Source: Catajapyx aquilonaris
Taxonomy: Eukaryota
Direction: 5' to 3'
Assembly: GCA_000934665.2 (NCBI GenBank)
Contig: KZ538127.1
Location: 62,001-118,553 of the forward strand
Length of the DNA: 56,553 nt
The notes beneath the pieces were generated by a model. That model was not told the DNA's origin and made no database searches. It was given only the letters and a program-made list of their open reading frames with translations. Position 1 is the first letter of the stretch; every line of letters begins with the position of its first letter. Below are positions 32,401 through 56,306 of the stretch, one piece after another. The position numbers were made by a program, and so were the translations under genes.

Positions 32401-35400
32401 GTCACACCGTCGTGCAGGATGCAGTATATTGCATTAAAAATACCCCATCAGGCAAAAGATACCGCCTCGAGCACATAGTGACCTGTCAACTGCCGATTAG
32501 TCACTGAGGCGTTAGTGACGTTTTATTTTCGACTTATTAATTCACACGTATTGCTGCACCCGTCAATGTTTTCACTGTAACATCATGCAATGCGAATGAC
32601 TTTCTCTGAACTGCACGTGTGGGTAACACAACTCCTGAGACATGAACGATTTAGAATGCATCTGATAATGATTTTAAAAATTCATCGCTTTTAAATTTGC
32701 ACATAATAATATTCTAATGCTGTAGGCTATTTTGTATGAGGCACATTCTGAGAAAATTCTAAATAATCAGACTCGCCTATTCAAGAACTAAAGAATGTGT
32801 ATGCATTGGCGAAGTGATTCACCACAGAACACATATTTGACCATGAATTTGACAATTTGTGAGGAATTTTTACATAATATAATTGGGATTTAAATCCCGG
32901 AGACGCTTCGCCGCATTTTGCCATACTATTTCTTCCGCAAGTGATGACAGCTGTAATAGGTCAGCAACCCAAAGTGAAGAAATTGCTTCCAGCAGGCTAT
33001 ATTTTGCTGGATCGGAATTCTGCCTGTCGTTGCATTCCAGTATAGGCTATAAACTAATGTGTGTATATATAGACAGAGAAAGTCCTGCTTATATACGAGT
33101 AAAATTATACGCCCATGTGTAAGCTATAGGTCCACCTTTACTTATAGAAAAAAATTACAGAATTTTTGATATTATGGAAGTGTTAATGCAGAGCGTAAAG
33201 GCCTATGGTGTTAAAATGATAAGAAGTTGATATTTTGATTTTAGCATTATATTGTACTTATGATCATATGCGTTCAAAATAACTTAACACTTGAATTTGC
33301 TTTTTCTAATTAATTTTGCACCACAAAACTTTTCTTTTTTATGTTGGAATTACCTTCTTTATGAGTTGTGACATGAACCTGTCAAAATATTTGTAATTTC
33401 GCAGAATAATTCTCCCATATTGCAATACTCGTCCACATGCGACAAAAGAAACTGCGTATAAATTTTTGGAAGGCAGATCAGCAAAAAATCTAACGCACAA
33501 GAAATAATATTGTGACTGGTGATGAAACCATAAAAATAAGACTCGTGCCATCAAACGTCCTGCACAATTTAGGGGACTGTGGGTTAGCTCAGTTCAGAAA
33601 TATTGACAAGGAGGGCAGCTAACTTTGCTGCTGTCAGAGTTATTTTTAAATTCCCTTCCGTATGAAAATAAACCTCCTTAAAATAAAAACAAAAACTTAA
33701 AAGGTTAGCAAAATATTTAATTTGGCATTTTGCTCTTTATTATTTTAATCTTCAAAACTTTGAACCAACCGGCTATAATTGCGTTATTGTTATTATTAGC
33801 ATTTAAAAAAACACTTTTTTAAATGACCCCAACAGGTGCAAATGTTGCAATACTCGGTGTAAAATAGCTGGTACTAAAGATCTAATGATAGACAAGACAT
33901 CCACATCACGCTGTACTTTTGCTAACTCGGTTATACTTGCAAAGGGCGGTTTCTAAACAAAGCCGGAGACAGGTTTACTCCACTTGTATTCTTTAGATGG
34001 ACGAGTAGCGCAAAAATAGACGTCCCACACCTTGTGGCGGGGATCTAGGAACACATCCTCTCCATACATACATCCCCAGCAACTCCTTACAGAGGAGTCG
34101 CAAAATAGCAGAGTTATTTTCAGTTTCTAACCATAAACATGCCCAGTTCGCTAATGATTGCGAATTCAATTAGTGCCTGAAATTATAATTGCAGTATTGG
34201 CTGAAGTACAAATGTCCAACTTCAACAAAGAGGCTCACTATATGATTCTTGTAGGATGAAGAACTTTTTTTTGGGTTTATTTTGAAGAAGGAAGTATATG
34301 GGCATTTACGTCTGACGTGTCTATACACACAAGCCTTTAAAATGGCTCGAGAGAATGGCGTGAATGAGATTTTTAAAATAGTCATCGCTTCCAAAGGGGT
34401 TAGAAGGATGCTGTCAGTAAAAAATGATAAGGCGCGTGCTTCGAACGCATAACATTCTGTAACCGAGTTATGAAAATGAAAAGTATAGCACAATACACTG
34501 TGCTTAATTTGCTACAAAAATATTGCCAAATTGGTCACATGGTACAGCTACCTGTGAAATTAACTTGTCACTAAATAGTGGCTGTACAGTGTAAAGATTT
34601 TTTGTGACAATTTCAACGCCATTATGGTGATTTTCTGGAAGAACATGAATGAAAATCCATTGTGGTTAAGTACTATTCCCAAGCAAACTTGGAAATAACT
34701 GAAAGCCTATCAACGAAAGATATATCACTCAAAAAGGACATTAAATTTCAATTAGCTTGAGTGAAAGATCACTCAAATTGAGCCGAAAACCACTCAAACT
34801 ATTTTAGACTAGAGGCTACGTACTTACAGCTATGCGCTATAGAAAACGGCCTATTCTAATGAGGGTGCTGTTTGTTTTAAAAAGTCTGGTACATGAGAGG
34901 CTATAAATTTACGATGCAACAACACCTAACTGGAACTAATAAATCACAAAAGAAGGATAATGACCCGATGTAAATTTTCTTTATTTTTTTGTTCCGAGAA
35001 TAGTGCTCAGGAATTCACTCAGGAATTTGGTCATCCTCTTGCAAAGGAGCAAGGTACTTTGGCCTACCTATATATGTACTGAAGGATAATAGTTTCTTTA
35101 ACAATCGCAGAAAAAATGCTGTAAGTCACGTGATTAGAAGCTTGTGATCAAAATTGAAAACACTCGGGGGGGAAAAAGACACAGAAATTTACCAGTGATT
35201 ATATCCTAATATTGGTCAACATTAAGGAATTTCCAAAACCTCACGCACAGCTGACTTGAACTTATTGCTCCAAAAGTCCCTGATTATTTTTATGACTCCA
35301 TTTTTTTTTGCTCCCCTACAAAATTCTATGGCTTGAACCGTGTCCTGAATTTAAAGCTCCAAATTTTACGGACCGATAGCTAATGAATTGGATTACTCAG

Positions 35401-38600: not shown

Positions 38601-41600
38601 CCGACACATTGATCATTTTAATTTCTGAATCGCTATTCCGGAATCAGGCTTGGTTTTTCCTGACTGCAATTAACCGGATCAGGTTTATAGGCAAAGTTAT
38701 CACTTATCAGTGCAAAAATTCAATTATTTTTTGTAGGGGTAACGACGCAAGAGAAGCAGCAGTTAGTATACGTGAAGGTTGCTGCATGTGTTTATTTAGT
38801 CTTGTCAGTATGGGGAAGGAGTACGAGGCAGAGTCCATATGAATATCCAGGCGGTCGAGTTATAGTTAGAACTGCAACCTGATAAAGGCCCCAGAGGTAC
38901 AAGCAGAACTGCTAACCTTCCTCGACACCTACCCATTTTTGAAATTCAATCATCATATTTCGGGTTTGGTGGCGCGCATGGTTTGCTGCTGCTCGTTATG
39001 CAACGTGGAAAAAGAGGAGTGCTGCGATGTGAGATAATTTCTGATGCTCCAGCGAGTAATATTTATGCCATACATGAATGAGTCTGCTTTATAACGCTTG
39101 TAACGCACCGTTAAAGCACATCGTAAAAATCTTGATCACTCAATAGTAAAGCTTAACAATGTTGCGGTAATGTTTTAATCACTCTTAAATTATTTTTAAA
39201 GTTTCAGTTCCAATCCAAAAGTTACAGACGGTATACATATTTAGCAGGTACAGATCTTGTTTGGAAAAACACATGTAACATTAACGCATCAGCAGTCCCA
39301 ATCAGTTCGTGTCATAATATCAATTGTGGTACATAATTATTCGACATCGCTCAAGAAATTTGCATAATTTTGCAGCTCAAGAGTTGTTGCCGCCAAAGCC
39401 TCTCTGCAACCGCTTTATAAAAGTACGCCAGCGGTCATCTGATAGCTTCGTTTATTTTTACTCGCGTATTTGGAAACTCTAGAGAACTGCTAAGCTAAAA
39501 TTTCGCAGAAAAATTTCTACAATATTGCCGTCATGACACTTCCCATCTTCGTGATTACTATTAGTAGTGCGGGGGAAAAAATGTTTGCTTTATTGTAAAT
39601 AAACTATGGTAAGGAAATGGCTTAAATGTGATGATGGGGGAAATAGAGTGACGATACATTTTTGGGTCGCAGGGTAGGTGTCGGTGGAGCAGCATAACAT
39701 CGAGACAGGTGTCCCTGACGGATACGACCCTCCTGCATCTCACAGATATCGAGAGACGCACACTTCAAAAGGTCGCTTTGGCCAAACTGCAGGCACTCAA
39801 CCTGGGTGCTGCCATTCGCATTCCTTCAGGTGAGTCTTATCCAATTGAAAGGGCTGTCACTGAACACTAATTTTCAAGAGAAAAACTGCCCAATAGGTCC
39901 TTATCACAATCCTATAGTTGCTCCTCTTGCAATTTGTTTCTGGATTAAACAACTATGTATACCTAACACATGGAGAGGATAATATTATTCTAGCAATGGC
40001 CTGATTTTATATTAATTTTTTGTAGAAAACTCCAATCCGACGCATAAACCAAAGAGGAGGCCATACTTGCTAAAGAAGAAGGCGCTGACCACAGGCTTCT
40101 TCGAGGGAAAAGACAAAGGTACAGTATAGGTATTGTACTCATTGCAGAATAATGAGTTCAACATAATCATGACCTATCACATTGTGCTGGATTGTGAACT
40201 ATTTTTGAACAAATTTTGACAGTTAAAAATGAGTTGCACAAAAATTTCGTGGACCTTTCAGACCACATTTACAAACCTTTTAAATCAGGCTGAACCCGGG
40301 CTTTTTGCCTCACTGGCTACGTCCTTGTCAACAAATGGTCACAAATAGCGCATCAATATTACGCGGATTATTGTGTGCCAAGTGCACAAAAAATTCTTGC
40401 CTTGGAACTCGTCGACACCTTTTTTTTAAACTGGGTCAGTAAGACTATTGACGCTACCTTACTAATGGAAACTGGCAGCTCAAAATAAACTTACGAGACC
40501 ATTCATTCGGGGGAAATAATGTTAATATCCGCATTCCGCTCCCAATTCCGTGAGCTCTGGTACGCAAGGCTACAAACAAAAGTTATGGTTTCAGCACGTT
40601 TATTGCCACGGAAAAATTCTGCAATGTTTCGTATTCAGTCTATCGCATTTGCAGTGTAATTGCATGATTGTAATATGAAAGCTCAAATACATTATGGCGA
40701 AAATAATTGTGTGGGATTGTGTATTGCAATATAAGCTGATATTGCAATAATTATTTCTTTCCCCAGGTCCTAAATTAGATTGAAATTCCACACAACCGCA
40801 GTCTTGTTTTGGTACGATCTATAAGATGTGTGTTGAGAGTAAAATGATCCAATTGTACGAATTATTGTTATGTATAGTGTATACTTGTGCTGATAAGTTT
40901 GATCTTACAGAATCATGTGGAGGGATGGTGTTCGGCATCTCTCTGAACCAGTGCATCAGCAATGACCAAGTTGCGAGAAGGGCAAGGGGCATAAGCCCTT
41001 GTCATCGGCATGGATCCGATGATACTGATCTCCACAAGAAAGCGCACCACGGCAGCAGAACCAGCTTTGGATCTTTACTCGACAGTCTCAGGAACGACAA
41101 GGTCAGTCGACTTGCCAAGGAAAATACTACATTATTAGTGGAAGGAATTTCTCACCATCTGTATAGTACTATAGTTCATTGATCGGAGCAACCTTCCCAT
41201 AAACGTGCATTTTTTTTCAGATTCCGTACCTTGTACTGACAAACGTTATTACTTGTTACTGGCCTTTTTTTTCAGAGTGAGTCTCAGCTACTAATCTAAT
41301 TTTGTTTGCCATTAAAATGAAAATACGACCATCATTATATTAGTAAAACCACTTTGTGGATGTGAATGTCATATCCTGTTTGGCTATAGACCAGGGGTTT
41401 TAAGCAGCAGAGTTAACATTTAACGTGGATTAATAAAGGAAAATTGACGTAAGATATTTTCTGTTGTGGCTTGTGGGTCCAAAGTTTCCAAATTCAGTCA
41501 ATATTCACAATTTCATAATTTTGGTAAATGAACAGGGAACATAATGTAGTTAAAAGGGTATATATATCCACCTCTCTCACATTACTTGTACACTAGATCG

Positions 41601-44600
41601 AGCGCAGTTATTAATACGACATGCACGCCATCAGAGATTTGAATTTGTAGTCACAGCCATATAAAGTGGTCTTTTCAGTTCATAATTACGGTACAATAAA
41701 TGACATTTTTTTTACATTGATATCCTGAGAAATTACTTTGGGATCACGAATCTTAATTTTTCCAGGGCTCCCTTATATATGTTGCACTGAGAAGATGCAG
41801 TCTGGGAAGTTTGTACTTGACAGTCAGTTGGCAAAGATCTTTTTATGCGAAACTTATCATGCGAAACTTATCATGTGCTTTATGGAAAAATAACAACAAT
41901 TCTGTGCAGGACTTGCATTAGTCAAGGAATTCTAGCTTCTAGTAAACATTCTTGCGCTTCACTTTGGCAGTATAACTATTCATTTCACCAATTGTACCCA
42001 GTTAACTGCATTATTATACTGTACTATACTGATGCATTCAGTATTCAAGTTATTTCATGATTATTTATATTTCAATACGGATAATTACTTCAAAACTGTT
42101 TCTAGTAATTAAATGAAACATGCCAATGCTTTGTTATACAGAGGATGTTGCACTATTCAAAAGGCAGCAGTCCATGCATGAGAAATGGAAAGTGGTATGG
42201 TTTATTTTCTCCACCAGCTAGTTTATAAACTGTCGAACGATGATTCCTGTTAAGGAGAAACAACAGTCACTACATAATGAATAAGGTCCTATACAACAAT
42301 TTAAAGCCATTGCTTGGGGTGCACAATCTCTAACATCTTCCCCAATAAAATGGACTGTGAATTATTATGACGAGATCGTGTTTAGCCATTGCAATTATTT
42401 ATTTTTGCGTGATTAATACCCAGTGTGCATTTACAATAATTATCAGAATTTACACTGAATGTGATGGTCAGTAACACCTACATTACCTCCACGTAATCTA
42501 TTACAAAATGTCACATTCATAATTTTTGGGGAGGTGTGCACTCTGTGCAGGTGTTGAGTGAGACATGCTGATAACAAGGAATATCCTGCTGCTTATCACA
42601 GATACTTGCAGGGTGACCTACTCAGACATTCACATAATTTATTTTTACTACAAATTGTCTGCATTTTGTCAATCCCTTATGTTTTGTAAACTATTGTCTG
42701 GTACCTGCTGTTAATTGTTTTTGATTTTGCGATTTCACAAGCACGGAAAAAATGTAGCACCCAGTAAGCAATGTACACAAAAGAGTCTGGTCTATTGTTA
42801 AGTTAATTAGTTCCTTTTGGCAGTGCATGTGATCCAGTTTATTCCCATGCCGAGCGAGTCCGAAGGAAACAAGGCGGAGAATACTGAAGGAGTGGCTTAA
42901 GAAAAGGACTCGTAGACGACCTGCTGTGGTTTTCAGATGATGATGAAGAAGTGTCTATTTTTGGGGAGTGCCCAGTATGCGGTGGGCACGAATAGAGCTG
43001 GCTAAAGGCCAGCATTGAACGGCGCCAGCCTCTTTTCTGCTCACTTTATTTATTCCTTGCAAAGAATCAACAGATGGCCATGCTTCTGAAGGCTTATTGG
43101 GGGAATTTCCAGGTGTGACCTCTGCAAAAGGCCTTAATCCTTAAAAATCCCAAAAAATGAGATTTTTTTTGGGTGGATTGTGAATGTAAAGGTTGGACTA
43201 TCTGTCGTTCTATATAGACTGGCTCCTGTGAGAGTCTGAATCTGGAGAAGAAGAGATGCAGCTTGGCAGGTAGTCTTGGAGGATTGGACAACCTCTCGTG
43301 CTCTTCTGCGGACGGAGTTGATCCTCCTGCTACGGAAGTGCCAAATTCATCTCCGTCCCCGTTGGTTCCTGGTATTGTCAACGCCTGTTTGCGTCACTTG
43401 GAAAAACACGGCCTTCAAACTTTGGGAATCTTCCGGGTCAGCAGTTCCAAGAAGAGAGTACGCCAGGTATGTGTCTCACATTTTTATTGCCAATAACTGC
43501 AACCCGGTATTTTTGGGGGTGTCTTGACAGATGAGACTCATCACACTCAGCAAAGTTCAAGTGCGATGTAATTGTTGTTTGTCATATTTTCAGCTAAGAG
43601 AAGAGTTTGACAGTGGAAAGGACATTCTGCTAACTGAGGACCATTGCCCACATGACATAGCTACCCTTCTAAAAGAGTTTTTCCGAGACTTGCCCGAGCC
43701 ATTACTGTGTAGAGAACTATATCCAGCCTTCCTTCAAATGCAAAGTAGGATTGCCAAATAATATTGCGGGAGCTGTAGATTATGGCGTCTAATGCTACAA
43801 CAACAAATCATTTCAGAAATCCGCAATCGGAAATTGCAATTCGAGGCATTGCAGTACTTGGTCCAGCTTCTTCCAGCTCACAACCGAGACACACTGTGGT
43901 CACTGCTGACATTTTTGGCCACTGTGGCCGAGAATGCAACAGATCACCGAAACAAAGCCGGTATAAATTCGTGAACGACCCTGTTTTTTTTCTATCATGT
44001 TCTAACTGCAAATTGTGTCAAACAGGAGAATGGGTACCTGGGAACAAAATGGACAGCAACAATCTGGCCACACTCTTTGCCCCAAATATCCTCCATTGCA
44101 TCAAGCCTGGAAGTGACAAAGAGCTTTCGGCTGAAAGGGCAGAAGAGCGCATTGATGTCATCAACGTTGTCCGAAGTATGATTGACCACAACAAGGAACT
44201 TTTTGAGGTATGCACCTGCTGGGTACCAATAACTCTCTGATTGTTAACACTGCTGTTTCTGTGCAGGTGTCTGCAGAACTTATGGACGAAGTGTACCTGC
44301 ACCTAATGGACACACATCCCGAATCATTGGACCAAATCCTAAGGAAGCGTTGCTCACAAGGAGAGGAAATACTAGACGATTTGGACACAAGCAGCAGCGT
44401 TTTCGAAGGCAGCGAAGCTTCTTCTTTGCCAAGGACCCCAACCGACGTCGCTTTGCATGAATCCGCGGTTGCCAACAGCACTGCAGCAATTGACAGGTAA
44501 TAAACATATCGGGGGGGGGGGGGGGGGGNNNNNNNTTTGTTTGATATACCAATATTTAGCAGGCATTTGGAAAGGAGTGGTTCCAAACCGGATGTTATAT

Positions 44601-45878
44601 CCAACACCACAGAGGATCACAACCGTCGGTATAGGAAAAGAGAGGAAATACTGCATGAAACTGGCGGTACTGGAGGGTCAGCAAGGTTTGTCTTGTAATT
44701 TCACATGTTTGTACGACAATTTAACAGAATTTGTTTGGTACAGGATGAGAGACCGGGGTCGTGATAGGACGAGACGAAAAGAGCGTGGGTCTACAGGCAG
44801 CATAGGAGACCACCCTGAAGCATCAGACCGGTACCGAAAGAGCTACTCGGATAAGGAGGACGCAGGATCATCGTCGACGACACCCGTGGCTGAAGAGGAC
44901 GAGCGTACCAAGTGGTTTCGACGACCATCGGGAGAAAGCAGCGACGGTTGGGAAGCTCATCGCAAACGGGAACGACGAGAAGGACAGTCCGACTCCGATG
45001 CGATTCGACCGTTGGTCCTGCGCGACGGAGAACTTCGGAAGCAACCTGGGGTGATCACAGCTAGTCTTAAAATTCCAGTGCCGATGCAGGCGACGTCAAC
45101 GACGATAGCGGCACCAGCGTCGCTTCCGTCGCCAGCACCCCCGTTCGCACTCAGCCTGGACGACACCGACATACCGTTCATCGAGGACACGGGCGAACGA
45201 TGCGACGACGTCGTTGCAGAGTTCAGGGTCGGATCAGCCCCTGCACGTGCGTCGCTTGAGCTGCACCAACGACGTCGGTCAGGCACAGGCAGCAGCAGTA
45301 CCGATTCCTCCATGGTTGTAGCGGTCCGTACCGGTACGTCATCAGGCACCAGCACTCCAGCCAGCGCATGTTCGTCCCCACCATGGCGATCAGAGTCCTC
45401 AACACCTGCATTGTCACCACCGACGTCCCCGACCACCCGATTTCCGTACGAGGAAATGACAGCTCGGATCAGCATCCCGACCAGATCAGAGGACACGGAC
45501 AGGATAAGTCCGACCATAACCGCGTACAGAAGCGGTGCAACAACAGGTACCGACAGAAGAGCGTTGCAGCAGGGACGTGAGACTCTCGGTGCGTGTGTCC
45601 TAGCCGGAGGAGGTGTAGTGCGATCACGTACGACCGACATCGGCGGTCTGGCCAGAGCACAGCATCAGCAGGAGGCTCCGATGATGAAGAAGACGACCAA
45701 GAATAAGTCGTACGTCGGTGGCAACAGGCATCAGACAGCGCATCTTCCGGACGTTCGAGGAAGAATAAAAGGCGACGAAGAGCAAGGCCATCAGGTGAGG
45801 CAAAGGCCTCAGGGAGCCATGTGGAAACGACAGGAGATCATAGCCAGTCATCCGAAACAATCGGAAACTTTTGTGTAA
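35651..45878 (+). CDS. ARHGAP6: Rho GTPase-activating protein, ARHGAP6/RhoGAP102A-like, 11 coding exons, ~1248 aa
   Basis: Exons 35651-36352, 37165-37677, 39673-39829, 40026-40118, 40911-41101, 43218-43466, 43594-43744, 43817-43960, 44026-44207, 44267-44496, 44744-45878 (3747 nt in frame). GAP domain: [23 protein letters not shown] (arginine finger intact), [42 protein letters not shown]6-like pre-GAP segment [11 protein letters not shown]...[14 protein letters not shown]. Confidence 0.92.
36412..36783. mobile_element. Nested MITE cluster: two adjacent hairpin elements inside an outer inverted repeat
   Basis: Inner A: CCCGATTGCACC (36450) to GGTGCAATCGGG (36555). Inner B: GCCCGATTTCT (36562) to AGAAATCGGGC (36722). 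Outer: CATTTAACTGACCGTTAA (36412) pairs with TTAACGGACAGTTAAATG (ends 36783). Confidence 0.8.
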
Positions 45879-47164
45879 CAATACGCGTGTAACAATGAAC
45901 TGTACACATTCATATGGTCCGCTACTTTTTTTTTTCACAACCGAGTGCGCACCACAGTTCGCGCAGCTTGCACGGTTGGCATTATCAATGACTGGTCAAT
46001 AAGAGATGCGCTTATTTCCAACGCTACCCTGCTTGGACGAGGGGAGGGAATAACAAAATGGGCACGTTTGCGACGTTGCCAAAAGCTATGAAAAGGCGTC
46101 CTTTTGGTAGTAACTCTGTCAACGTTTTTTGTCGGAACAATATAGCTGCGCGAGTGTGGGTGCGCACTCGGTTGCGTTCGTTAAAAATTCAATATGTGCG
46201 CCACTGCAGGTTGGTTATTGTTATATTAATTGTTGGCAGGAAACAATGGAAACATATTTTCTCCGTGTATTAGTCATTAAGCCGTCATTGAACTGTACTC
46301 TTGCCATTTCTACTGTACGTATAATATGCGGTGGACGTATTTCTCTTTAAATAACATGAGAAAAATGCGTGCAGCCTCGGTTCGGGATTAAGTTAATAAA
46401 TTATATAGTCACTTTATCGTGCCAAAGGTATTATGATTTTTTTGTAAATGTTATAACTGATGGTGACCGTTTTCACACTTAATTTTAAGAGAGAGAGAAA
46501 GAGAGAAATATAGGTGTACACACTTTTAAAACTGACGATGTAACCATGCAATTATAGTCATTGTTTTATGTCTTGCGAGGACATCAGCACAGGCTGACTA
46601 CAACCTTGCACCTCGCTCGTTCTTATTAAAAAAAATAAAGAGGATATTTGTTGAATTCAAGACTTAAATTATTGTTATATTTTTATTTACTCTTCACTTT
46701 CTGTTATAATTTCTGAATTTAAAAAAAAGAATAAAGTTTGTTACGTCTACGTGTATATTTCTTACGCCAACGGGCACCTGAACACATAGGCCTACGTACG
46801 CAATTTTAAAGCATTAATAATATGAACGCATTTTAACAATCACCCTCAGCCTCCTATTCAAAGGGTGAACATCATGAATAATAATAAGCGAATATCACTA
46901 TTGATTGTTGTTGCCTCACTTCAAACCAGTTGCTAGGGTAGACACTCCATAACGCTTTTTCTTTTCCTTCCTGCTTTTGAACTGAAGACAAAATCGATTT
47001 TTCTTAGTTGATCCTGCAGGTTATGCTTTCCGTGTGCCACATCCGAGAGTTGCATACAAGACAGGATGTAAATCTCTGCGACAACTAATAAAGAAAATAA
47101 CAAAATAATAATAATAATAAAATAATATAAAGAAAATAATAAAGAAAATAAAGACATACTGTCA

Positions 47165-47270
47165 TACTGATTGGCGAAGCCACAGTAATGTTCGTTGGCC
47201 TGTGACACAACTAAGGAAAATAAATGAAGAGCTACTGATTGGCAAAGCCACAGTAATGTTCGTTGGTCTG
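47165..47270. repeat. Direct duplication of ~37 bp upstream of the rumi fragment
   Basis: TACTGATTGGC(G/A)AAGCCACAGTAATGTTCGTTGG(C/T)CTG at ~47165 and ~47233. Confidence 0.85.
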
Positions 47271-47339
47271 CGGCAGGACAAGACGGACAGTATTGTTGGG
47301 CAGAAGACAAACCCACAATAAGCGCTGCATATTTGACAG

Positions 47340-47487
47340 GGGGACCAGATACCAAGTGATAAACCACCGTTTGCACCGCGATGCACCGGAGTCGAGGATT
47401 TCCTGCTGCCTCTCCTGCCCAACCTCCCGGACATGGAGTTTGTCCTGAATACGCGTGACTGGTCGCAGATACAGCGCCAGTGGTCCA
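47340..47487 (+). pseudogene. Isolated decayed exon of protein O-glucosyltransferase (rumi/POGLUT1, GT90)
   Basis: After the acceptor TTTGACAG: GTRYQVINHRLHRD, then a deletion/frameshift, then CTGVEDFLLPLLPNLPDMEFVLNTRDWSQI. This matches the POGLUT1/rumi motif GTxYQIxxxxLYRxxxCMFPxRCxGVEHF...LPDMExVINxRDxPQ. No other rumi exons seen. Confidence 0.8.
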
Positions 47488-47720
47488 ACCATGCGGTCAT
47501 ACTCGCAATTGCTCAAATTCAAGCCCATTCAAGACCATTAATTAATGGAAGTCAAGTCGAAGTCGTGATGATTAAATTTTTTAAACCCATAATTTATTTC
47601 AGGCGATGCAAAGTGCATTCTTGTTGATACTTTTTATAACACGCACGTAACCCATGATTCACATGCCTACTAGCAGTACCGATACTGCAATATGTTTGTA
47701 TTCCAGTCAATGTTCTGTTC

Positions 47721-49215
47721 ACGCCCAACTTAGTCGCCGAGTACTTGCAGCGGTATCCGGCCGCATTACGATTGTTCCTGGAGCATAATTATGATCTTTC
47801 AGGTTAAACTGGGGGTAAGTACCGACCGAATCTAATCGAATTTGGTTAACAACCGGTTTGTTACAGAGCAAGCAATTCCATAAGCACTTAGCGATGCTGT
47901 ACTTGGAGCAAGTAATATCGCTTCTGAACAAAGACGAATCGCAACCATCCGAAGCCAGACGCAAACTCCAGGAGTTGCTGGAAGCCTCGTCGAATTACAG
48001 TCCAGTTCATCCTCGGGAAAATGGCGAACACCGAACTGTATCCGGAGATGCCCATACTTTACGCGAAGGTATGTAAATGCAACGCACATTGTTACGTAAA
48101 TGTGATGTACATTGTTACGTGAATGTGACGCAAATTGTTATGCACAATGCGAGGGGAGGCGGAGTGGTGCTGTGGTAACGGATGCGCCCACGGATGTTAA
48201 GGTCCCGGGTTCGATCCCAGCCCGGGGACACCCCCTTCATCTCGTGCAGAGTTCAGGGTCACCTCTGGCTTCGTCTCGGGTGGTATTTCCACAGACTAAA
48301 CCACCCGGGGGAGTTCACTAAAAATGGCCACAGCGTAAGATGCACTGCACCTTGCACATCCCCTCCTGTCATCCTGCCCGTGGGCCCGGGCTTTAATTAA
48401 ATAGGCACCATGTACTGAACAACTCAAAATACAATAAAGGTCCATGCGATACACCCGGGAAGGGGTGAAAGCATTACCCACAAATTATTATTATTATTTA
48501 TTATTATTATTATGCACAATGCAGTACATTTCTGCAGAATTAATCGGTTGCATTACTGATGGAGGATCATGATAAAGAGTTTCAGATACTAGTGTACAAA
48601 CTGGGCGATCATAAAGCGGCCGAGGAGCACAGTGTACGTAATGCGAACGGACTTGACATGGCAAAGCAACAGAATATATTTTACACTCTTCTTCACGTCT
48701 ATCTCTCGCCATCTGGAGGGCAAGTGTATGACTCGTAATTTGTGCGGGAATCAATCATTTGTTTTTTTTTCAGAGTTGAGCAGTTGGATCCGGCACTGAG
48801 TCTGCTGAACAATCAAATACGGCTGAATTCGATGTGGTTCAGGTGATCAGCCTGCTTCCGCCGACCTGGCCGCTTTCATCGGTACAGCGGTTCATATGTG
48901 GTTGCCTCCGAAGCCACCTTCATGTGAGCCGCATGAAGAAAATCGAGAGCTCGTTAGTCAGAGGAGAAAACGTGCAGAACAAGTTCATCTGGCATGACAT
49001 GTGCCGTGATGCGCTGGTTCTACTCGAATCAAAGCAAGCGCAATGAATGACTTGCAGTACTAATCCGATCTCTTTACAGTTATTGTTGTGTTTGCAAAAA
49101 GCCGTTTGAAGACCCAGCTTGCGCAAGATATCCAAAAGGGCTTGTCATTCACACGTGGTGTGCACGACAACCCAACGTTTGTCTGCTAACCAGAGCCGTC
49201 TTTAGAGAATACTGA
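47721..49215 (+). pseudogene. TGFBRAP1: 5'-truncated, unprocessed TGFBRAP1 (Vps3/Vps39 family) pseudogene, five 3' exons
   Basis: Exon remnants 47721-47814 (VAEYLQRYPAALRLFLEH), 47867-48068 (FHKHLAMLYLEQV...ARRKLQELLE), 48559-48719 (HDKEFQILVYKLGDHKAAEE...FYTLLHVYL), 48774-49033 (AEFDVVQVISLLPPTW...LVRGEN), 49080-49215 (CCVCKKPF...RYPKGLVIHTWCA). Frameshifts near 47787, 48000 and 48817; acceptor mutated to TG at 48557-48558; two GC donors. Confidence 0.88.
48151..48509 (+). mobile_element. tRNA-derived SINE with 13 bp target-site duplication
   Basis: A box TGGTGCTGTGG, B box GGTTCGATCCC, (TTA)n tail, and TSD TTATGCACAATGC at 48138-48150 and 48510-48522. Confidence 0.9.
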
Positions 49216-49259
49216 TCTGTATACATATGTTTAATTAAATATATTTAAGCTGTACAGTA

Positions 49260-51436
49260 TTAGAAATTACGCTCTAATGGATGCGACACTTGGTAGCCCT
49301 TATGCGATACGATCTTCTCGGCGATGTTCATGTACATTGTGTCCGTCGTTGCGAATTGGCCGTCGTTCAGCTCGTTGACTAGTCGCTTCACGGCGGTGTA
49401 TGCATCGCAGCAGTACGTTTGCGCCAGGGTTATCTGCAATTAATATGCGATGTATTATTGCGGTACATAGCGACGAAGTACATACTTCCAAATCCGCGTT
49501 CCTCAGCCCGATGCAGTACGACCTGGACGATCTTGCTAATACCGCAGTCATACCGTATATCATCACAGCAACGTCTGATAGCCGCCGTAGCACCATATGT
49601 CGCTCGGCAACTTCAGCGCCATGATACGCAAACACCTGCTCCACACCGAACTCCAGTCGCGCCACGCAGTACTCCAGCATCTTCACGTATTTCTGCAAAT
49701 ACACACATCATCACACCCGATAATTTCAACCATCATTGTCTTACCTTCAGCGACGGATGGACGAACCCATCCAAGCCCATGTCCACCTTAGGGTTGTCCG
49801 AATGGTGCCATATTCGCTGCATCGTTTTCCGGAAGATGAACCCGGGGTGGAATAGCGGGTTTCGCATCTTCTTAACATCATCCTGCAGTTCAAGTCCGGC
49901 AAAATGTAGTCCCGCGAGTGCAACGTACGACCTCAGTACATCACTGCTGGTTTCAAATAGTTGCAAGGCACGTGCGTCTTGCATTATACGGTTTAGGTAG
50001 TTTGTAGGGTCGTACCCGGGTGATCCGACGATGCTAAGTGCTTCGACTACTGCGGTCCATAGTGCGTCGGTAGCCATTAGTTTAACCGCTGTCGACTCGA
50101 CGGTCGTATCGGCATCGGTTGTATCGATCAATCCGGCTGTCATGTACGTAGCGCTTTCCACCGCGTATGTAGCGACTGCCATTTTCGCTAACTTGGCTTG
50201 CGTTAACTGGTCTGTCCTCGCATGCTCCACGGTGTACTTCAGCACATCCCGCAACATCGCACTGCACACTCCGCCCCAGCAGAAACGATCCGCTGTAATC
50301 GCATTGACCGCCAGCTTCAATCCCTGTCCAACCGTACCCAACGTATTGGCAGCCGGAACAGGCGTGTCCTTAAACTGTACGGAGCACAAATCTGCTCCGT
50401 TGATACCAGGCGTCCCATGCGATTTGACCGTCACTCCGGGATAGTCACGCTCGACTATAAATGCAGTCAGTGCATCGTACTTAAGATGCTTATGATCCTG
50501 CATCTCCGTCTGGGCGAACACGACGTACAGACTGGCATTCCCACCGTTAACGACCCAGGGTTTGGTGGCGTTCAACGTCCAGGTGGTGCCGTCGTCTGAC
50601 AGCCTCGCTTGAGCCTTAATCTTCGTAACGTCGGAGCCGATGTCCGATTCGTTAAGGCAAAACGCAGCGATCCATTCGGCGGTGGACAGCAACGGAAGGT
50701 ACTTGGAGCGCTGTTGCTCGTTACCCTCAAGCAGCAGACTCTAATGAGAAAAAGAATATTACGCCATGGCAACGACACTGGTTCTTTGAAGCTCACCTTA
50801 ATGCCAAGGGCTTGGTGCGCATGGAGCATGACTGCAACGGACGCATCGCCCCCGACGGCCTCCACCATCCGGACGTACTCAGTCGACGTCGCTTCCGTCC
50901 CTCCGTACGCCTGCGGAACCTGCACTCCGCACAGCCCCTTCTGTCCCAGCGACCTCAGGTCATTCGCTGACCCTTCCAACGACCCGACCTTGCCCTTCAG
51001 CTGGGTCAGCGCCTCCCCGTCCAGCTCCGGGAAGGTCAGCACCCTCGGGTCCACCTTGCCCAGAAAGGCGCTCTTCACCACCGGCTGCATGCGGATCTTG
51101 GACGACTGGGCACCCACGCCCTCCTCCGCAGGCTTCACCTTCTCCACCTGCAATGGAATGTACCGGTAAGTAGTGTCCATTGCAACAGGCCCATGGCAAC
51201 AGTCGATGACAAGGGGTGTCCACACTTGCAATGGTACATGGCAACAATAATGTACTCTACATTTTTGAGCGGTTCACTCTGTTCGCAATGTACAGGGTTT
51301 CCCCCCCTTGTGGTGACCACAGTGCCCTGACCTGTGTTGCGAGTGTCCTCCTGCTGCATGGGGGCTGCTGGACGCACCTTCGTCTGACCTGATGACCCAG
51401 CAGCAGACTTGTTGACCTCAACACGTGCGAGGTCAT
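49260..51436 (-). CDS. ACAD9: Mitochondrial acyl-CoA dehydrogenase family member 9-like (complex I assembly factor; Egm-like), 5 exons, ~610 aa
   Basis: Exons (minus) 51436-51332 (Arg-rich, acid-free presequence MTSHVLRSTSLLLGHQVRRR...), 51147-50797, 50740-49745, 49692-49486, 49433-49260; 1833 nt in frame. Motifs AHQALGIK, AAFCLNE, AFIVERDYPGV, YGMTAVLARSSRSYCIGLRNADLE and C-terminal HPLERNF are VLCAD/ACAD9-class. Confidence 0.9.
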
Positions 51437-51633
51437 GCTTTTCTGATCACAGACGATAGTATCGACTACTTTTGATTCTACTACTTGATATCATCCATCA
51501 CTGACTGTGTGGACGATGCTGGTGCACGTCGGATCGATGGTATTATCATAGCCAAAAAAAAAAAGCCAGCTGTTTTTGCCACGTATTAGCAGCTGTGCTA
51601 CGTTCGGCCAGCCGGTTCGAGGTGGATGAAAAG
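51437..51633. promoter_or_regulatory. Compact bidirectional housekeeping promoter (ACAD9/TUSC3)
   Basis: Only 197 bp separate the opposing ATGs. Contains DRE-like TATCGA and GATCGATG, CATCACTG (Ohler motif 7-like) and two CAGCTG E-boxes. Confidence 0.7.
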
Positions 51634-54601
51634 ATGGCCGCTTCTCGTCGTTCCTGGTTTTTCCTTCTGCTTGGGACGTGTCTCCTTGCCGGTTACTGCT
51701 GCCATGGACAGGCCAGGAGGAAAGAGGTAGGCATGGTTGGATTTGGGAGGGTCACTTTGGGCATCGGTTGGGGGGACAGATTTTCCCAGGGGTGTCTTCA
51801 GGGCAGTAGGTACAGCGCAGTGTGATGTGTTCCCCGTTGCAGCCTGGTTCTAGTTTGGCGGATAGGGTTCAGCAGCTGGTGGACCTGAACTCGAAGCGGT
51901 CCGTGCTGCGGTTGAATGGGAACAAGTTCAAGGATCTGGTCAAGGCGTCGCCACGCAACTACTCCGTGGTTGTCATGTTCACTGCGATGGCTCCGTCCAG
52001 GCAGTGCTCCATCTGCAGACATGCGCATGACGAGTTTCAGATTGTGGCCAACTCCTACCGATACTCCCAGGTGTACTCAACGAAGCTGTTCTTCGCAATG
52101 GTGGACTTCGACGAGGCGCCCGACGTCTTCCAACTGGTCAGGTCGCTGTTTGCTTTCATGTGATCAGAGAATGACGTTAAACTTCCTTTTCAGCTGAGGA
52201 TCAACACAGCTCCTATATTTATGCACTTTCCGCCAAAGGGAAAACCAAAGAGTAGCGATACGATGGATATACAGAGGGTTGGGTTTGCGTCTGAAGCTGT
52301 AGCTAAATGGATCGGGGAACGGACAGACATACAGGTCAGTTTATTGCGAATATAAACAAATTCACAAATTAATACGAGATGGCCAGTTGGATTGTACCTG
52401 GTCATCGCTGGTATATCTTGATGGGATAAGGACGTTTTTTTAAAAAAACCTACATGTATTAATTTGTACAATTGCTTCTCCGTGTTAAAGATCCGTGTGT
52501 TCCGACCACCAAACTACTCTGGGACGGTGGCCCTGATTGTCCTATTCGGTCTGGTGGGTGGCCTTCTGTACCTGCGCCGCAACAACCTGGAGTTCCTATC
52601 GAACAAGACGGCATGGGCAGTGGGAGCTCTCCTCTTCATATTCGCCATGACTTCTGGCCAGATGTGGAATCACATCCGTGGACCTCCTTTTGTCCACAAG
52701 ACGGCTGCTGGGCACGTGGCATACATCCATGGCTCTTCCCAAGCCCAGTTCATCCTTGAGACCTATATTGTGATCATGCTGAATGGTGCTATTGTCCTAG
52801 GCATGATACTTATGACAGAGGCTGCCGCAGGGAAAGGGGATGTCCGGAAGAGAAGAATACTTGCCATGGTGGGACTCGCTTTCCTTGCCTTCTTCTTTAG
52901 CCTCATGCTGTCCATATTCAGGTCCAAGGCCCATGGATATCCATACAGGTGAGAATGCCATTACTGTACACACCTCAAGAAATGCATGCCTTACATATTT
53001 TTGCAGTTTGTGTATAAGTGTTGCTGAGCTAGTTGGAAATGCCCATGATAAGATGTAAAATGGTGCAAGCATGTACTTGTGTAAAAGAAATTGATGTTTC
53101 GGTATTACACAACTTATTGATCTTTTCAATTGGCGTCGGAGCTTAAAACATTGGGATTAATGTTTACAGGTGCTAAATAAGAAATTTATAAAAATGTTGT
53201 TGCCAATCACAGCTTGGAAAGCTTAGATCGCTTTACACTGCATTGTTTTCTTGGACCTAGCAATTTCTAAACCCAGTCTCTTCACTTGTGTACAATTTAA
53301 TTTACACATTACTGTCGCTAATGCCAACAGGAAATAGATCAAGCTTGGATGGAAAAGTAAAGGAAATCTTCACTGGTAATACAGCTTTTCATGTGAATAG
53401 ATTTGATGCTTTGTTTATGCTCGAATGTACCCATGATGATAGTAGGCTATTCTTGCCATCCTGTAATTAGTTTTTATGATATGGATAATCTTTTGCCTTG
53501 CTGGCTCATAGCTGGGAATATAATGGATGTCTGAAACTTTGGCATAATTACGAAGTTGAAGTGTCATGTGCAAAAAAGGGGCGTGCTTCCAGCTTCCTTG
53601 GAGCAGTGATTCTCAAAGTGTCACATGCAGCTCACTGGTGAGCCTTCAGCCCTCTCTTGTCGGCTGTGAATTGATCTGAAAGATCTTTCTTCGTTTTTAC
53701 AGGCCAATGGCATGTGCTTAATAATTGCAGGTCTAAGCATGCTTTGGTCTAGGCCACTAAGGAGTCGTTTGTTCCACCATAACTGGGCTGCATACAGAGT
53801 GTGAGAGTCACTGCTTTAGAGACGAAATGCTGTAAATAATGCCAGTAACTTTTGTGGGAAAATGGGGTGCATGGGTGCTAGTGAATGGGCAGAACAGTAT
53901 TTAGGTACAAAAACTACGTGGGAACCTGTGCGTAATGTACAGTGAAACTAGTCCAACGTGGAACCATTGCTTGAACTTGGCAAATGTTTTTCGGTGCACA
54001 TGCTAGAAACTTCTTCAGTAAGTATTTTCTGCTTCAGCACATCTTCATTTTTGCACTTTGTACTGCACTGCTGTGCATAACATTACCAGTAGCAGGCATG
54101 TAATTTTACTACATATTGCGGATATACTGTAAATAATTTAATATTAACTGTTGAAATTAGCTGTGATGTGCCCTTGGGTGTGATAGAGATAGTTTACAAT
54201 ACTGATGGGCTTCATCATGTGTCGAGTACTTACTACTCCAATAAGGTTTAATTTTCTCTGCTTGTACAAGTAGATTACTGGAAAAAATCGCTATCAGTAG
54301 TGTACTTGTCATGCCTTTCTAATCCAAACTCATATTGTTGTATGTGTAATTGTAAAATTAAAGTATGAAAACACACACACACGGGGTGTAAAGTTTGAGA
54401 TATGAGCATGGTATGTAATGAGGGCCTTTTGTATGGGCATCAGATAGTTAATTGCCAGGAGTAATAGTGCCAATCATTAAGGGCAGCATTACGCAATATT
54501 GTAAATATTATTATTATAAGTGTTTTTCAGCTAAACCTTTGGTTATTTCGCAATTAATAATTATTCCACTATGTTTTTGTTACAGTTTCCTGCTGAAGTG
54601 A
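51634..54601 (+). CDS. TUSC3: Oligosaccharyltransferase OST3/OST6-family subunit (TUSC3/MAGT1, Ost-gamma), 5 exons, ~333 aa
   Basis: Exons 51634-51726 (signal peptide), 51843-52136 ([22 protein letters not shown] thioredoxin-like CxxC, AMVDFDE), 52194-52334, 52491-52948 ([20 protein letters not shown] helices, [10 protein letters not shown]), 54586-54601 (SFLLK*); 1002 nt. AATAAA at ~54915. Confidence 0.95.
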
Positions 54602-55320: not shown

Positions 55321-55386
55321 AAATTGAGTAAATGAATAAACACGGCCCTGGTTATATCATGCTATGTGCTGTCGGCCGCAGAAGTA

Positions 55387-55978
55387 CAGTAAAACTTCCC
55401 TAAGTCGAAGTTCTCTATAAGCCAATGAAAATGACGAGCTTGGTTGGTCACAATGTAAAAGAATAGGAAATAAACTTCCCTAACTCGAATTTCTATAACT
55501 CGAAGTTCTCCATAACTCGAAGTGCAGGCAGGGCCTTACGATGGGATATCAATGCATTTTCAGTCTCCCTAAGCACAAGTTCATGTTGGCGAGTACGGAA
55601 AATCTTCTCATTTCCCAACCGAAGGGTCGAGAGTAAGCCACGTGTACAGAAAGGCCCAATTTCCTGATCCCCGTCTACCATACGTACAGAAAGAAGTGTT
55701 TGACTCGATTTTGACAATTGAATCCTTGGATCTATCTAAGAGTAGGAAAATGTCCATCACGGAGTCTTTTTTTCACAACAAAACAACGTGAAACATTGTA
55801 AGTGTGATAGAGACAGTTATTTTCAAGTTATGAACACCTTTCGTCGCTGGATATAAAGGTATGCTTCCTTATAGAGTTATGTGCTTCAACAAAATCCAAA
55901 CTTCTCCAACTCGAATCTTCTATAACTCGAAGTTTTTTTTCAGGTCCCATGGAGATTCGACTTATAGAAGTTTTACTG
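55387..55978. mobile_element. Non-autonomous pogo/Tigger-type element, TA TSD
   Basis: TA|CAGTAAAACTTCCCTAAGTCGAA ... TTCGACTTATAGAAGTTTTACTG|TA, with subterminal TAACTCGAA repeats near both ends. Confidence 0.85.
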
Positions 55979-56306
55979 TAATTCGTGTCCTGAAAATAAT
56001 CTACTCTTGAATCTGCTTTACCGAAACATTGGCCTTCAAGCTGATAGATTTCTGTATAAGCAGCAGCTCGTTGGCAAACGTAATATCCGTGTTTTGCCAC
56101 AGTATAATTTCGGATAATGCGCCTGTGTTGCTTACGTGATAAATATCAAAATAGGTACGGTATTGGAGTAGAAACGCCCAATGCAGGAGACAAAGTGGAG
56201 GCCCATTTTTGGGACCTTCAGCAAGAGAATGTTTCTGTTGTATATATGGTGAAAGGCCACCACATCAGAAGGTACCCTGGAGCTGTCTTTGCCGCACGGT
56301 CGAGAC

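Follow-up and report, generated by a model that had tools for sequence, protein, structure and literature searches.

The window analyzed here is a 56,553-nucleotide stretch of the Catajapyx aquilonaris genome (GenBank assembly GCA_000934665.2, contig KZ538127.1, here C239, positions 62001-118553), which we compared with its own 285.6-Mb assembly of 20,583 contigs. Within it, pieces of two genes, rumi (POGLUT1) and TGFBRAP1, are joined between a RhoGAP gene and the gene ACAD9, beyond which an OST3/OST6-family gene (OST3) stands head-to-head with ACAD9. The original prediction had described the join as a chimera of two unrelated gene fragments at 47160..49215. That extent was too short, as homology continues past 49215 right to 51550, and the copied block (47133-51550) consists of the 3' part of rumi, the 3' half of TGFBRAP1, ACAD9, and a segment we call P. 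We consider this block probably to be a DNA-level dispersed copy of a TGFBRAP1-ACAD9-P-rumi neighborhood, rotated by way of a circular DNA intermediate.

Searching the genome with 47150-47620 and 47600-49260, a test proposed with the original prediction, located the parental rumi on contig C1001 and the parental TGFBRAP1 on contig C1468. The window junction itself was found once (best 40 of 529 and best 40 of 2,813 candidates scored). Positions 47136-47490 align to C1001 in intron 2 and exon 3 of rumi, and 47497-47723 align to the same contig at the 3' end of the gene, covering the final portion of its last exon and the 3' flank. The predicted rumi exon, with its upstream intron and AG acceptor, was thus confirmed at 47340-47490 (plus strand), where it is the 5' part of exon 3 and carries a 25-bp frameshifting deletion near 47379 relative to the donor. 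Its frame matches Glyco_transf_90 at an E value of 1.4e-4, below the curated cutoff; the donor exon matches POGLUT1/Rumi structures at 1e-56. Because both alignments lead to the same gene, the ~230 bp between the two genes, formerly thought to be possible filler DNA, is rumi itself after a 1,430-bp deletion. This part (47491..47723, plus strand) comprises the end of the last exon with a premature stop, the native stop at 47566-47568, and the 3' flank, and differs from C1001:55895-55655 at 16 of 233 sites. The window piece of rumi has neither the promoter nor exons 1 and 2.

To the left of exon 3 lies a remnant of rumi intron 2 (47133..47339, plus strand; blastn matches to C1001 and to two further contigs, C5598 and C13308) that marks the left block boundary. 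A direct duplication of 37 bp had been noted here, and a repeat is indeed present (43 bp, 91%, 47165/47233). It is not a target-site duplication, because it represents two units of a ~68-bp minisatellite of this intron, of which the donor and C13308 have four units, C5598 three, and the window two. The supposed (AAT)n tail is likewise a real A/T-rich run (47083-47158), but it belongs to the A-rich unit of the same minisatellite, expanded in the window. Stretching the rumi homology left to 47073 gave no significant match (13 and 27 of 300 shuffles were as good), and the boundary possibly lies as far left as ~47073; a match reaching farther, into exon 2, was dismissed as chance (127 and 158 of 300 shuffles). 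The end of the intron (47236-47326) also matches a dispersed ~87-bp repeat found at 83 to 86% identity on dozens of contigs.

The TGFBRAP1 piece (47724..49215, plus strand) was recognized correctly as the last 5 of 11 exons, on the same strand and with introns kept; comparison with the donor shows that it begins within exon 7, at codon 571 of 851. Positions 47723-49425 align to C1468 apart from a young repeat resembling a short interspersed nuclear element (SINE) at 48151..48509, which is flanked by a 13-bp target-site duplication (48138-48150, 48510-48522) and was inserted after the duplication, since the donor lacks it. Indels of +4, -2, and +2 cause three frameshifts, one splice acceptor has changed from AG to TG, and two donors have changed from GT to GC. 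Relative to the donor, synonymous divergence (dS) is 0.155 and nonsynonymous divergence (dN) is 0.049, while 29 of 288 noncoding sites differ. The pairwise dN/dS of 0.32 (~0.45 against the corrected noncoding rate) fits one neutral and one constrained branch, although a short period of constraint is also possible. The last three exons hold 16 amino acid changes private to the window, 6 of them at positions where the donor residue is retained by at least 21 of 23 homologues. The best named homologues, which include an insect and molluscs, are 45 to 47% identical, and a search of solved structures with TGFBRAP1 returned no match. The rumi and TGFBRAP1 pieces of the window are both pseudogenes. 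Neither arose by retrocopying or L1-type transduction: introns are present in the copy, as the original prediction had argued, and the A-rich run lies within an intronic minisatellite.

Two junctions, not one, separate these pieces. The first, J1 (47490/47491), marks an internal loss of 1,430 bp of rumi comprising the rest of exon 3, exon 4, and most of exon 5. The second, J2 (47723/47724), joins the rumi 3' flank (C1001:55655) to the middle of TGFBRAP1 exon 7 (C1468:39413) and is a tail-to-head join with 1 bp of microhomology and no flanking homology. Both lie on the plus strand. The earlier suggestion of a rearrangement breakpoint was borne out. Co-orientation had also been thought to allow a chimeric transcript. 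We found no open frame or intact splicing path across the join, and rumi's own stop and 3' untranslated region (UTR) precede the start of TGFBRAP1. A chimeric product is therefore unlikely, given a rumi piece that is promoterless, frameshifted, and closed by its own stop, and a TGFBRAP1 piece with three frameshifts and three damaged splice sites; since both are pseudogenes, we do not expect a chimeric protein. By itself the flagged junction is functionless, dead DNA, the scar of a gene relocation.

The third gene of the block is intact. ACAD9 (49260..51436, minus strand; five exons, 610 amino acids) is the sole full copy that we found in the assembly. A DNA search of the genome gave only scraps elsewhere (5 of 5 candidates scored), and a protein search gave family members of at most 42% identity and one stopped fragment (16 of 16 scored). 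Expression was judged from X5, a read set from a second study that has no library record and that we took as RNA only since its contigs skip introns. One X5 contig (record 29) skips two modeled introns of the window ACAD9 with 0 differences, and other X5 contigs, of donor type in their letters, match TGFBRAP1 in spliced form as well as the 3' end of rumi. Each of the three genes thus survives in one copy. In addition, a 290-nucleotide unspliced X5 contig of window type covers 48590-48879, on the side toward which the ACAD9 3' end points. X5 left 46674-47234 and 51162-51535 uncovered, and no listed X5 contig crosses J1 or J2; neither observation bears on whether these stretches are expressed.

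Segment P (51437..51550) is compact and lies, at the donor, between the start codons of ACAD9 and rumi, a position that suggests a promoter region. In the window it is joined at 51550 to the OST3 leader, which forms the right block boundary, and the start codon of OST3 (51634..52952, plus strand; spliced in X5, joint 51724-51841) is 84 bp away. Judging by this placement, P may drive OST3, which with ACAD9 forms a head-to-head pair. Only the window has an intact and spliced ACAD9, the donor copy being deleted; we conclude that the gene was relocated and that OST3 was given a new putative promoter segment. The first six residues of OST3 (window 51634) and of rumi (C1001:58401) are identical with differing codons, probably a coincidence.

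At the donor, the order is RpL18A, TGFBRAP1, ACAD9, P, rumi, and exportin-T, divided between C1468 and C1001. TGFBRAP1 (851 amino acids in 11 exons, C1468) and rumi (421 amino acids, C1001) are intact there; intron 1 of this intact rumi has a GC donor site at C1001:58218. Downstream of TGFBRAP1, C1468 holds ACAD9 as three scraps together with part of P (corresponding to window 51449-51502). The last bases of C1468 and the first bases of C1001 are the halves of one short insertion with an 8-bp target duplication, whose empty site is seen in other copies of the surrounding repeat on C5983 and C4937. Because of this, and because the gene order of C13308 agrees, we treat C1468 and C1001 as one donor locus. 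C13308 is a single 1.6-kb contig that runs from the TGFBRAP1 end through a deleted ACAD9 and P to the start of rumi, sharing the ACAD9 deletions of C1468. Its exons are 97 to 99% identical to the donor (dS, 0.025; dN, 0.026; noncoding divergence, 0.125, probably inflated by repeats), and it represents either a haplotype or a young duplicate of the donor.

The two genes of the join are unrelated in sequence, as first stated, but near neighbors at the donor. Native adjacency had been named as a sign of simple deletion, and rumi and TGFBRAP1 are indeed neighbors; their order is opposite to that of the window, however, and a simple deletion cannot account for it. The window order, rumi (3')-TGFBRAP1 (3')-ACAD9-P, is instead the donor cycle opened elsewhere with strand kept. 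Rotation alone is symmetric and gives no direction of copying. Direction was inferred from the two edges of the donor. On one side, the block stops 3 bp after the inferred stop codon of exportin-T, and the rumi 3' flank within it doubles at the donor as the 3' UTR of exportin-T, read from the opposite strand. Within the 360 bp of C1001 55540-55900, a single AATAAA occurs on the exportin-T strand, inside the block, and hence rumi and exportin-T have interlocked tails. On the other side, TGFBRAP1 stands head-to-head with RpL18A within a tandem duplication that has decayed reciprocally (C1468:29651-36400; TGFBRAP1-to-RpL18A junction at 34027), RpL18A having been kept in the left unit and TGFBRAP1 in the right. 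The TGFBRAP1 relic beside the duplicate RpL18A differs at 31 of 173 sites, compared to about 7% for the window copy. The interlocked tail and this more diverged relic together identify C1468/C1001 as the donor, although dating by the relic is not clean, because the RpL18A duplicate differs at only 45 of 922 sites.

A ~11-kb mosaic repeat is inserted in P in the C1468/C1001 version (C1468:40890-48570 and C1001:61833-58491) and is missing from C13308. It carries an intron-bearing 5' fragment of a prolyl-tRNA-synthetase gene fused to a 3' fragment of a tyrosine-kinase gene. Copies lie on C5983, C4937, C308, C10203, C6772, C260, C105, C1227, C524, and C43, with parts 93 to 99% identical and the order of parts swapped in C308, C260, and C105. 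The repeat has a perfect ~12-bp hairpin near one end and is a candidate Pack/Helitron-type element.

Pieces of the block occur at no fewer than six other places, whereas RhoGAP, OST3, and the exportin-T 3' end have no such dispersed pieces. On C5598 (6917-8732), P and rumi to mid-exon 3 are followed by 144 bp from upstream of TGFBRAP1, joined with 4 bp of microhomology. This second tail-to-head join holds both adjacencies of the cycle, unlike any single linear donor, and either reflects a circle of its own or arose by deletion from the same circle. A fragment of a Ulp1-type peptidase gene follows the C5598 join. Collinear scraps remain on C43 (TGFBRAP1 and ACAD9 ends) and C537 (a piece of ACAD9). 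Two further collinear scraps are P with the start of rumi at the 5' end of an aminomethyltransferase gene (C2615:21332-21462) and part of P at the 5' end of a spermine synthase gene (C1227:12102-12164); breakpoints at promoters may be a pattern. The C43 scraps (143235-146809) lie downstream of a putative Hsp70-type gene, bracketed by two decayed copies of a coding-like segment (77 to 92%). A three-way comparison of rumi gave a star-like pattern of differences (8/10/5). At five amino acid positions the window and C43 agree with each other and differ from the donor; one of these positions is conserved in 19 of 23 homologues. This sharing suggests that the two copies are sisters, which does not separate the models considered below.

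Both flanks of the block are single copy. The left flank is the 3' part of the RhoGAP gene (41500..45878, plus strand, where 41500 is only the edge of the searched stretch), with a weak Pfam RhoGAP match (E, 7.8e-4) and one match in the genome (1 of 1). Outside the window, OST3 searches returned only a 40- to 67-bp intronic repeat (best 40 of 109 candidates scored). The sequence WATCGATW, presumably a DRE-like motif, is found at 46992, one of four in the window, with no indication of the gene it serves. Two features resemble miniature inverted-repeat transposable elements (MITEs): a short element at 45938-46200 with 31-bp inverted arms and many copies of 70 to 76% identity, and a possible MITE at 55381-55984 with 29-bp inverted arms 546 bp apart and internal short repeats.

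We observed directly the donor order, the rotated order, three junctions, two pseudogene pieces, and the survival of ACAD9 in the window only. Under the circular-intermediate reading, a segment that started within TGFBRAP1 or upstream of it and reached the rumi 3' flank would have formed a circle by a tail-to-head join, either through end joining or through excision from a tandem repeat, and J2 would be the closure join or a deletion-shortened form of it. The circle would then have opened in the 5' part of rumi with the loss of ~650 bp (exons 1 and 2) and inserted itself 84 bp before the OST3 start codon, in the interval between RhoGAP and OST3. ACAD9 alone would have been carried over complete, together with its promoter; the truncated remains of rumi and TGFBRAP1 would have decayed, the donor ACAD9 would later have been deleted, and OST3 would now stand behind the promoter segment that fronts rumi at the donor. 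Gene relocation by duplication and reciprocal loss is a known concept, and the present case resembles it in that each of the three genes persists in one of two copies. It differs from plain duplication and loss in its rotated order, which points to how the copy arose.

Several features that characterize circle-derived copies are found here: the order is rotated relative to the donor with strand kept, the donor ends are joined inside the copy without flanking homology (J2, 1 bp, within the 0 to 2 bp set), and the position is nontandem, with no repeated block beside RhoGAP or OST3. The available text on human segmental duplications attributed to circular DNA (Chicote et al. 2020, PMC7450558; Takahashi and Innan 2020, PMC7188851) describes the same combination, with order flipped and strand kept, donor ends joined inside a nontandem copy, 1-bp microhomology, and no flanking homology. 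Those cases span 22 to 3,918 kb in the portions of PMC7450558 consulted, compared to ~4 kb at present (without the SINE) in the window, which also differs in its invertebrate host, in the subsequent loss of a donor gene, and in having no empty-site outgroup. As far as their accessible text goes, reports on Nile tilapia vasa, moved through a ~28-kb circular intermediate (PMC3245284), and on the serial translocation of cattle KIT (PMC3420103, PMC7450558) likewise concern intron-bearing genes carried to distant sites in rotated order, with other, nonrotated dispersed copies from the same donor. Unlike those extra copies, the circle proposed here cut two flanking genes and the middle one alone survived, making it a relocation.

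Several points weigh against a circle. J2 may be a secondary deletion end instead of the first join. The ends of the copy face each other in the donor, but the ~650 bp between them is missing, whereas the accessible text of PMC7450558 reports opening losses of 1 to 27 bp. A metagenome scan for outgroup gene order gave three loci with no neighbor match, and no outgroup genome showed an empty RhoGAP-OST3 site. No read contig bridges 47490 or 47723 among the 32 matches listed. A tandem duplication with reciprocal decay did occur at the donor, and PMC7188851, in the part available, lists tandem duplication followed by deletion as a false positive that mimics the circle pattern. Finally, the genome is rich in Helitrons (54 matches), and a multicopy repeat carrying gene fragments is inserted exactly in P at the donor.

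We regard it as rather unlikely, though worth keeping in view, that a tandem duplication at the donor made the join and that a linear piece spanning it was later copied or rearranged into the RhoGAP-OST3 site through break repair or template switching, without ever forming a free circle. Such duplication and reciprocal loss lies just upstream of the donor TGFBRAP1, the ~650-bp loss would need no special explanation, and linear, nonrotated fragments exist (C43 and C537). Against this, the donor retains no trace of a repeated TGFBRAP1-to-rumi unit, C13308 showing just one clean unit, and one extra step is needed. The two models overlap, because a collapsing tandem array releases the same circle. 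Movement by a Helitron or other gene-capturing element, with rolling-circle intermediates rotating the order and the element ends later lost, seems improbable to us. The machinery is present: the 54 Helitron_like_N matches (74 of 74 candidates scored) include several in frames of more than 1,000 amino acids, and helicase-like scraps occur in related copies of the ~11-kb repeat (a Pif1 domain on C6772; below the cutoff on C524). In its available text, the report on Helraiser (PMC4778049) describes intron-bearing host fragments, dispersed copies, bypass of the element's own 3' end, and circular intermediates with head-to-tail joins. The dispersed pieces of the block would also suit such an element. 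The block, in contrast to Helraiser, lacks TC/CTAG ends and a terminal hairpin and shows no insertion at an A|T site, and its junction is single copy among the candidates scored, the other fragments ending differently. No hairpin with CTRR lies on the block strand at any boundary; the lone near-boundary match (51400, minus strand) is 1 of 40 such in the window. CTRR|TC is found at neither join on either strand, and the block contains no element sequence besides the late SINE. An A|TC near 47073 has no matching Helitron 3' end. At the block ends, target-site duplications of 6 bp or more and terminal inverted repeats did not rise above background. The earlier suggestion of Helitron/Pack-type capture was therefore unsupported, and a Pack-type element with terminal inverted repeats was rejected. 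Helitrons may still have had an indirect role, given their abundance and the repeat family in P.

We give very little weight to the converse history, in which the window order (rumi-TGFBRAP1-ACAD9-OST3) is ancestral, J2 is a simple deletion, and C1468/C1001 is the rotated copy. The symmetry of rotation allows it, C5598 also has rumi followed by sequence from upstream of TGFBRAP1, and ACAD9 and OST3 are a working head-to-head pair in the window. It needs an insert that came within 4 bp of the exportin-T stop and brought that gene its poly(A) signal. It further needs another fortunate join, by which rumi gained a promoter, and arrival next to RpL18A at a place already holding a TGFBRAP1 relic of greater divergence. 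Misassembly of the junction is very unlikely as well. It would agree with the lack of a bridging read contig for J1 or J2 among the matches listed, with the fragmentation of the assembly into so many contigs, and with the origin of read runs X1 to X3, which are one sample and possibly the assembly's source. Opposing it, no N occurs from 44536 to the window end, and both pieces are 6 to 7% off their donors with private indels. Window-type letters stand at full depth on either side of J2 (X1 TGFBRAP1 contig depth, 30.1 for window type and 25.7 for donor type, versus 26 to 33 for single copy), where a single shared base could not mislead an assembler. The left and right block boundaries are each bridged with 0 differences (X1 records 1 and 8), and in X5, the run from the second study, window-type sequence covers 48590-48879 and 49174-50510.

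We therefore return to the circular intermediate as the probable origin of the block. As far as the accessible text of the reports goes, circular-DNA duplication is documented in yeast, tilapia, cattle, and humans (PMC7450558, PMC3245284, PMC7188851), and our comparison also drew on bioRxiv 10.1101/2022.06.22.497135; our literature search, made on titles and abstract starts and with partial coverage, found no arthropod case. The window feature works like a circle-mediated segmental duplication, and what makes it noteworthy is the moved ACAD9 gene and the exchanged promoter segment rather than any chimeric gene. It offers a compact, base-resolved case with lasting effects: ACAD9 moved to a new address and disappeared from the donor, and OST3 came to lie behind a different putative promoter segment. 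A further lesson is that what looks like two unrelated genes fused may be the scar left by tail-to-head joining in a neighborhood copy. We further speculate, and consider it doubtful at present, that one gene-bearing circle or rolling concatemer seeded several germ line sites (the window, C5598, and the remnants on C43, C537, and C2615), opening at different points and tending toward housekeeping promoters (OST3, aminomethyltransferase, and spermine synthase). If so, a single step would have moved an essential gene and swapped the promoter of OST3. If, in addition, the gene-fragment chimeras of this genome share that route, possibly aided by Helitrons, then shuffling by way of circles would be a major driver of how gene order changes in this lineage.

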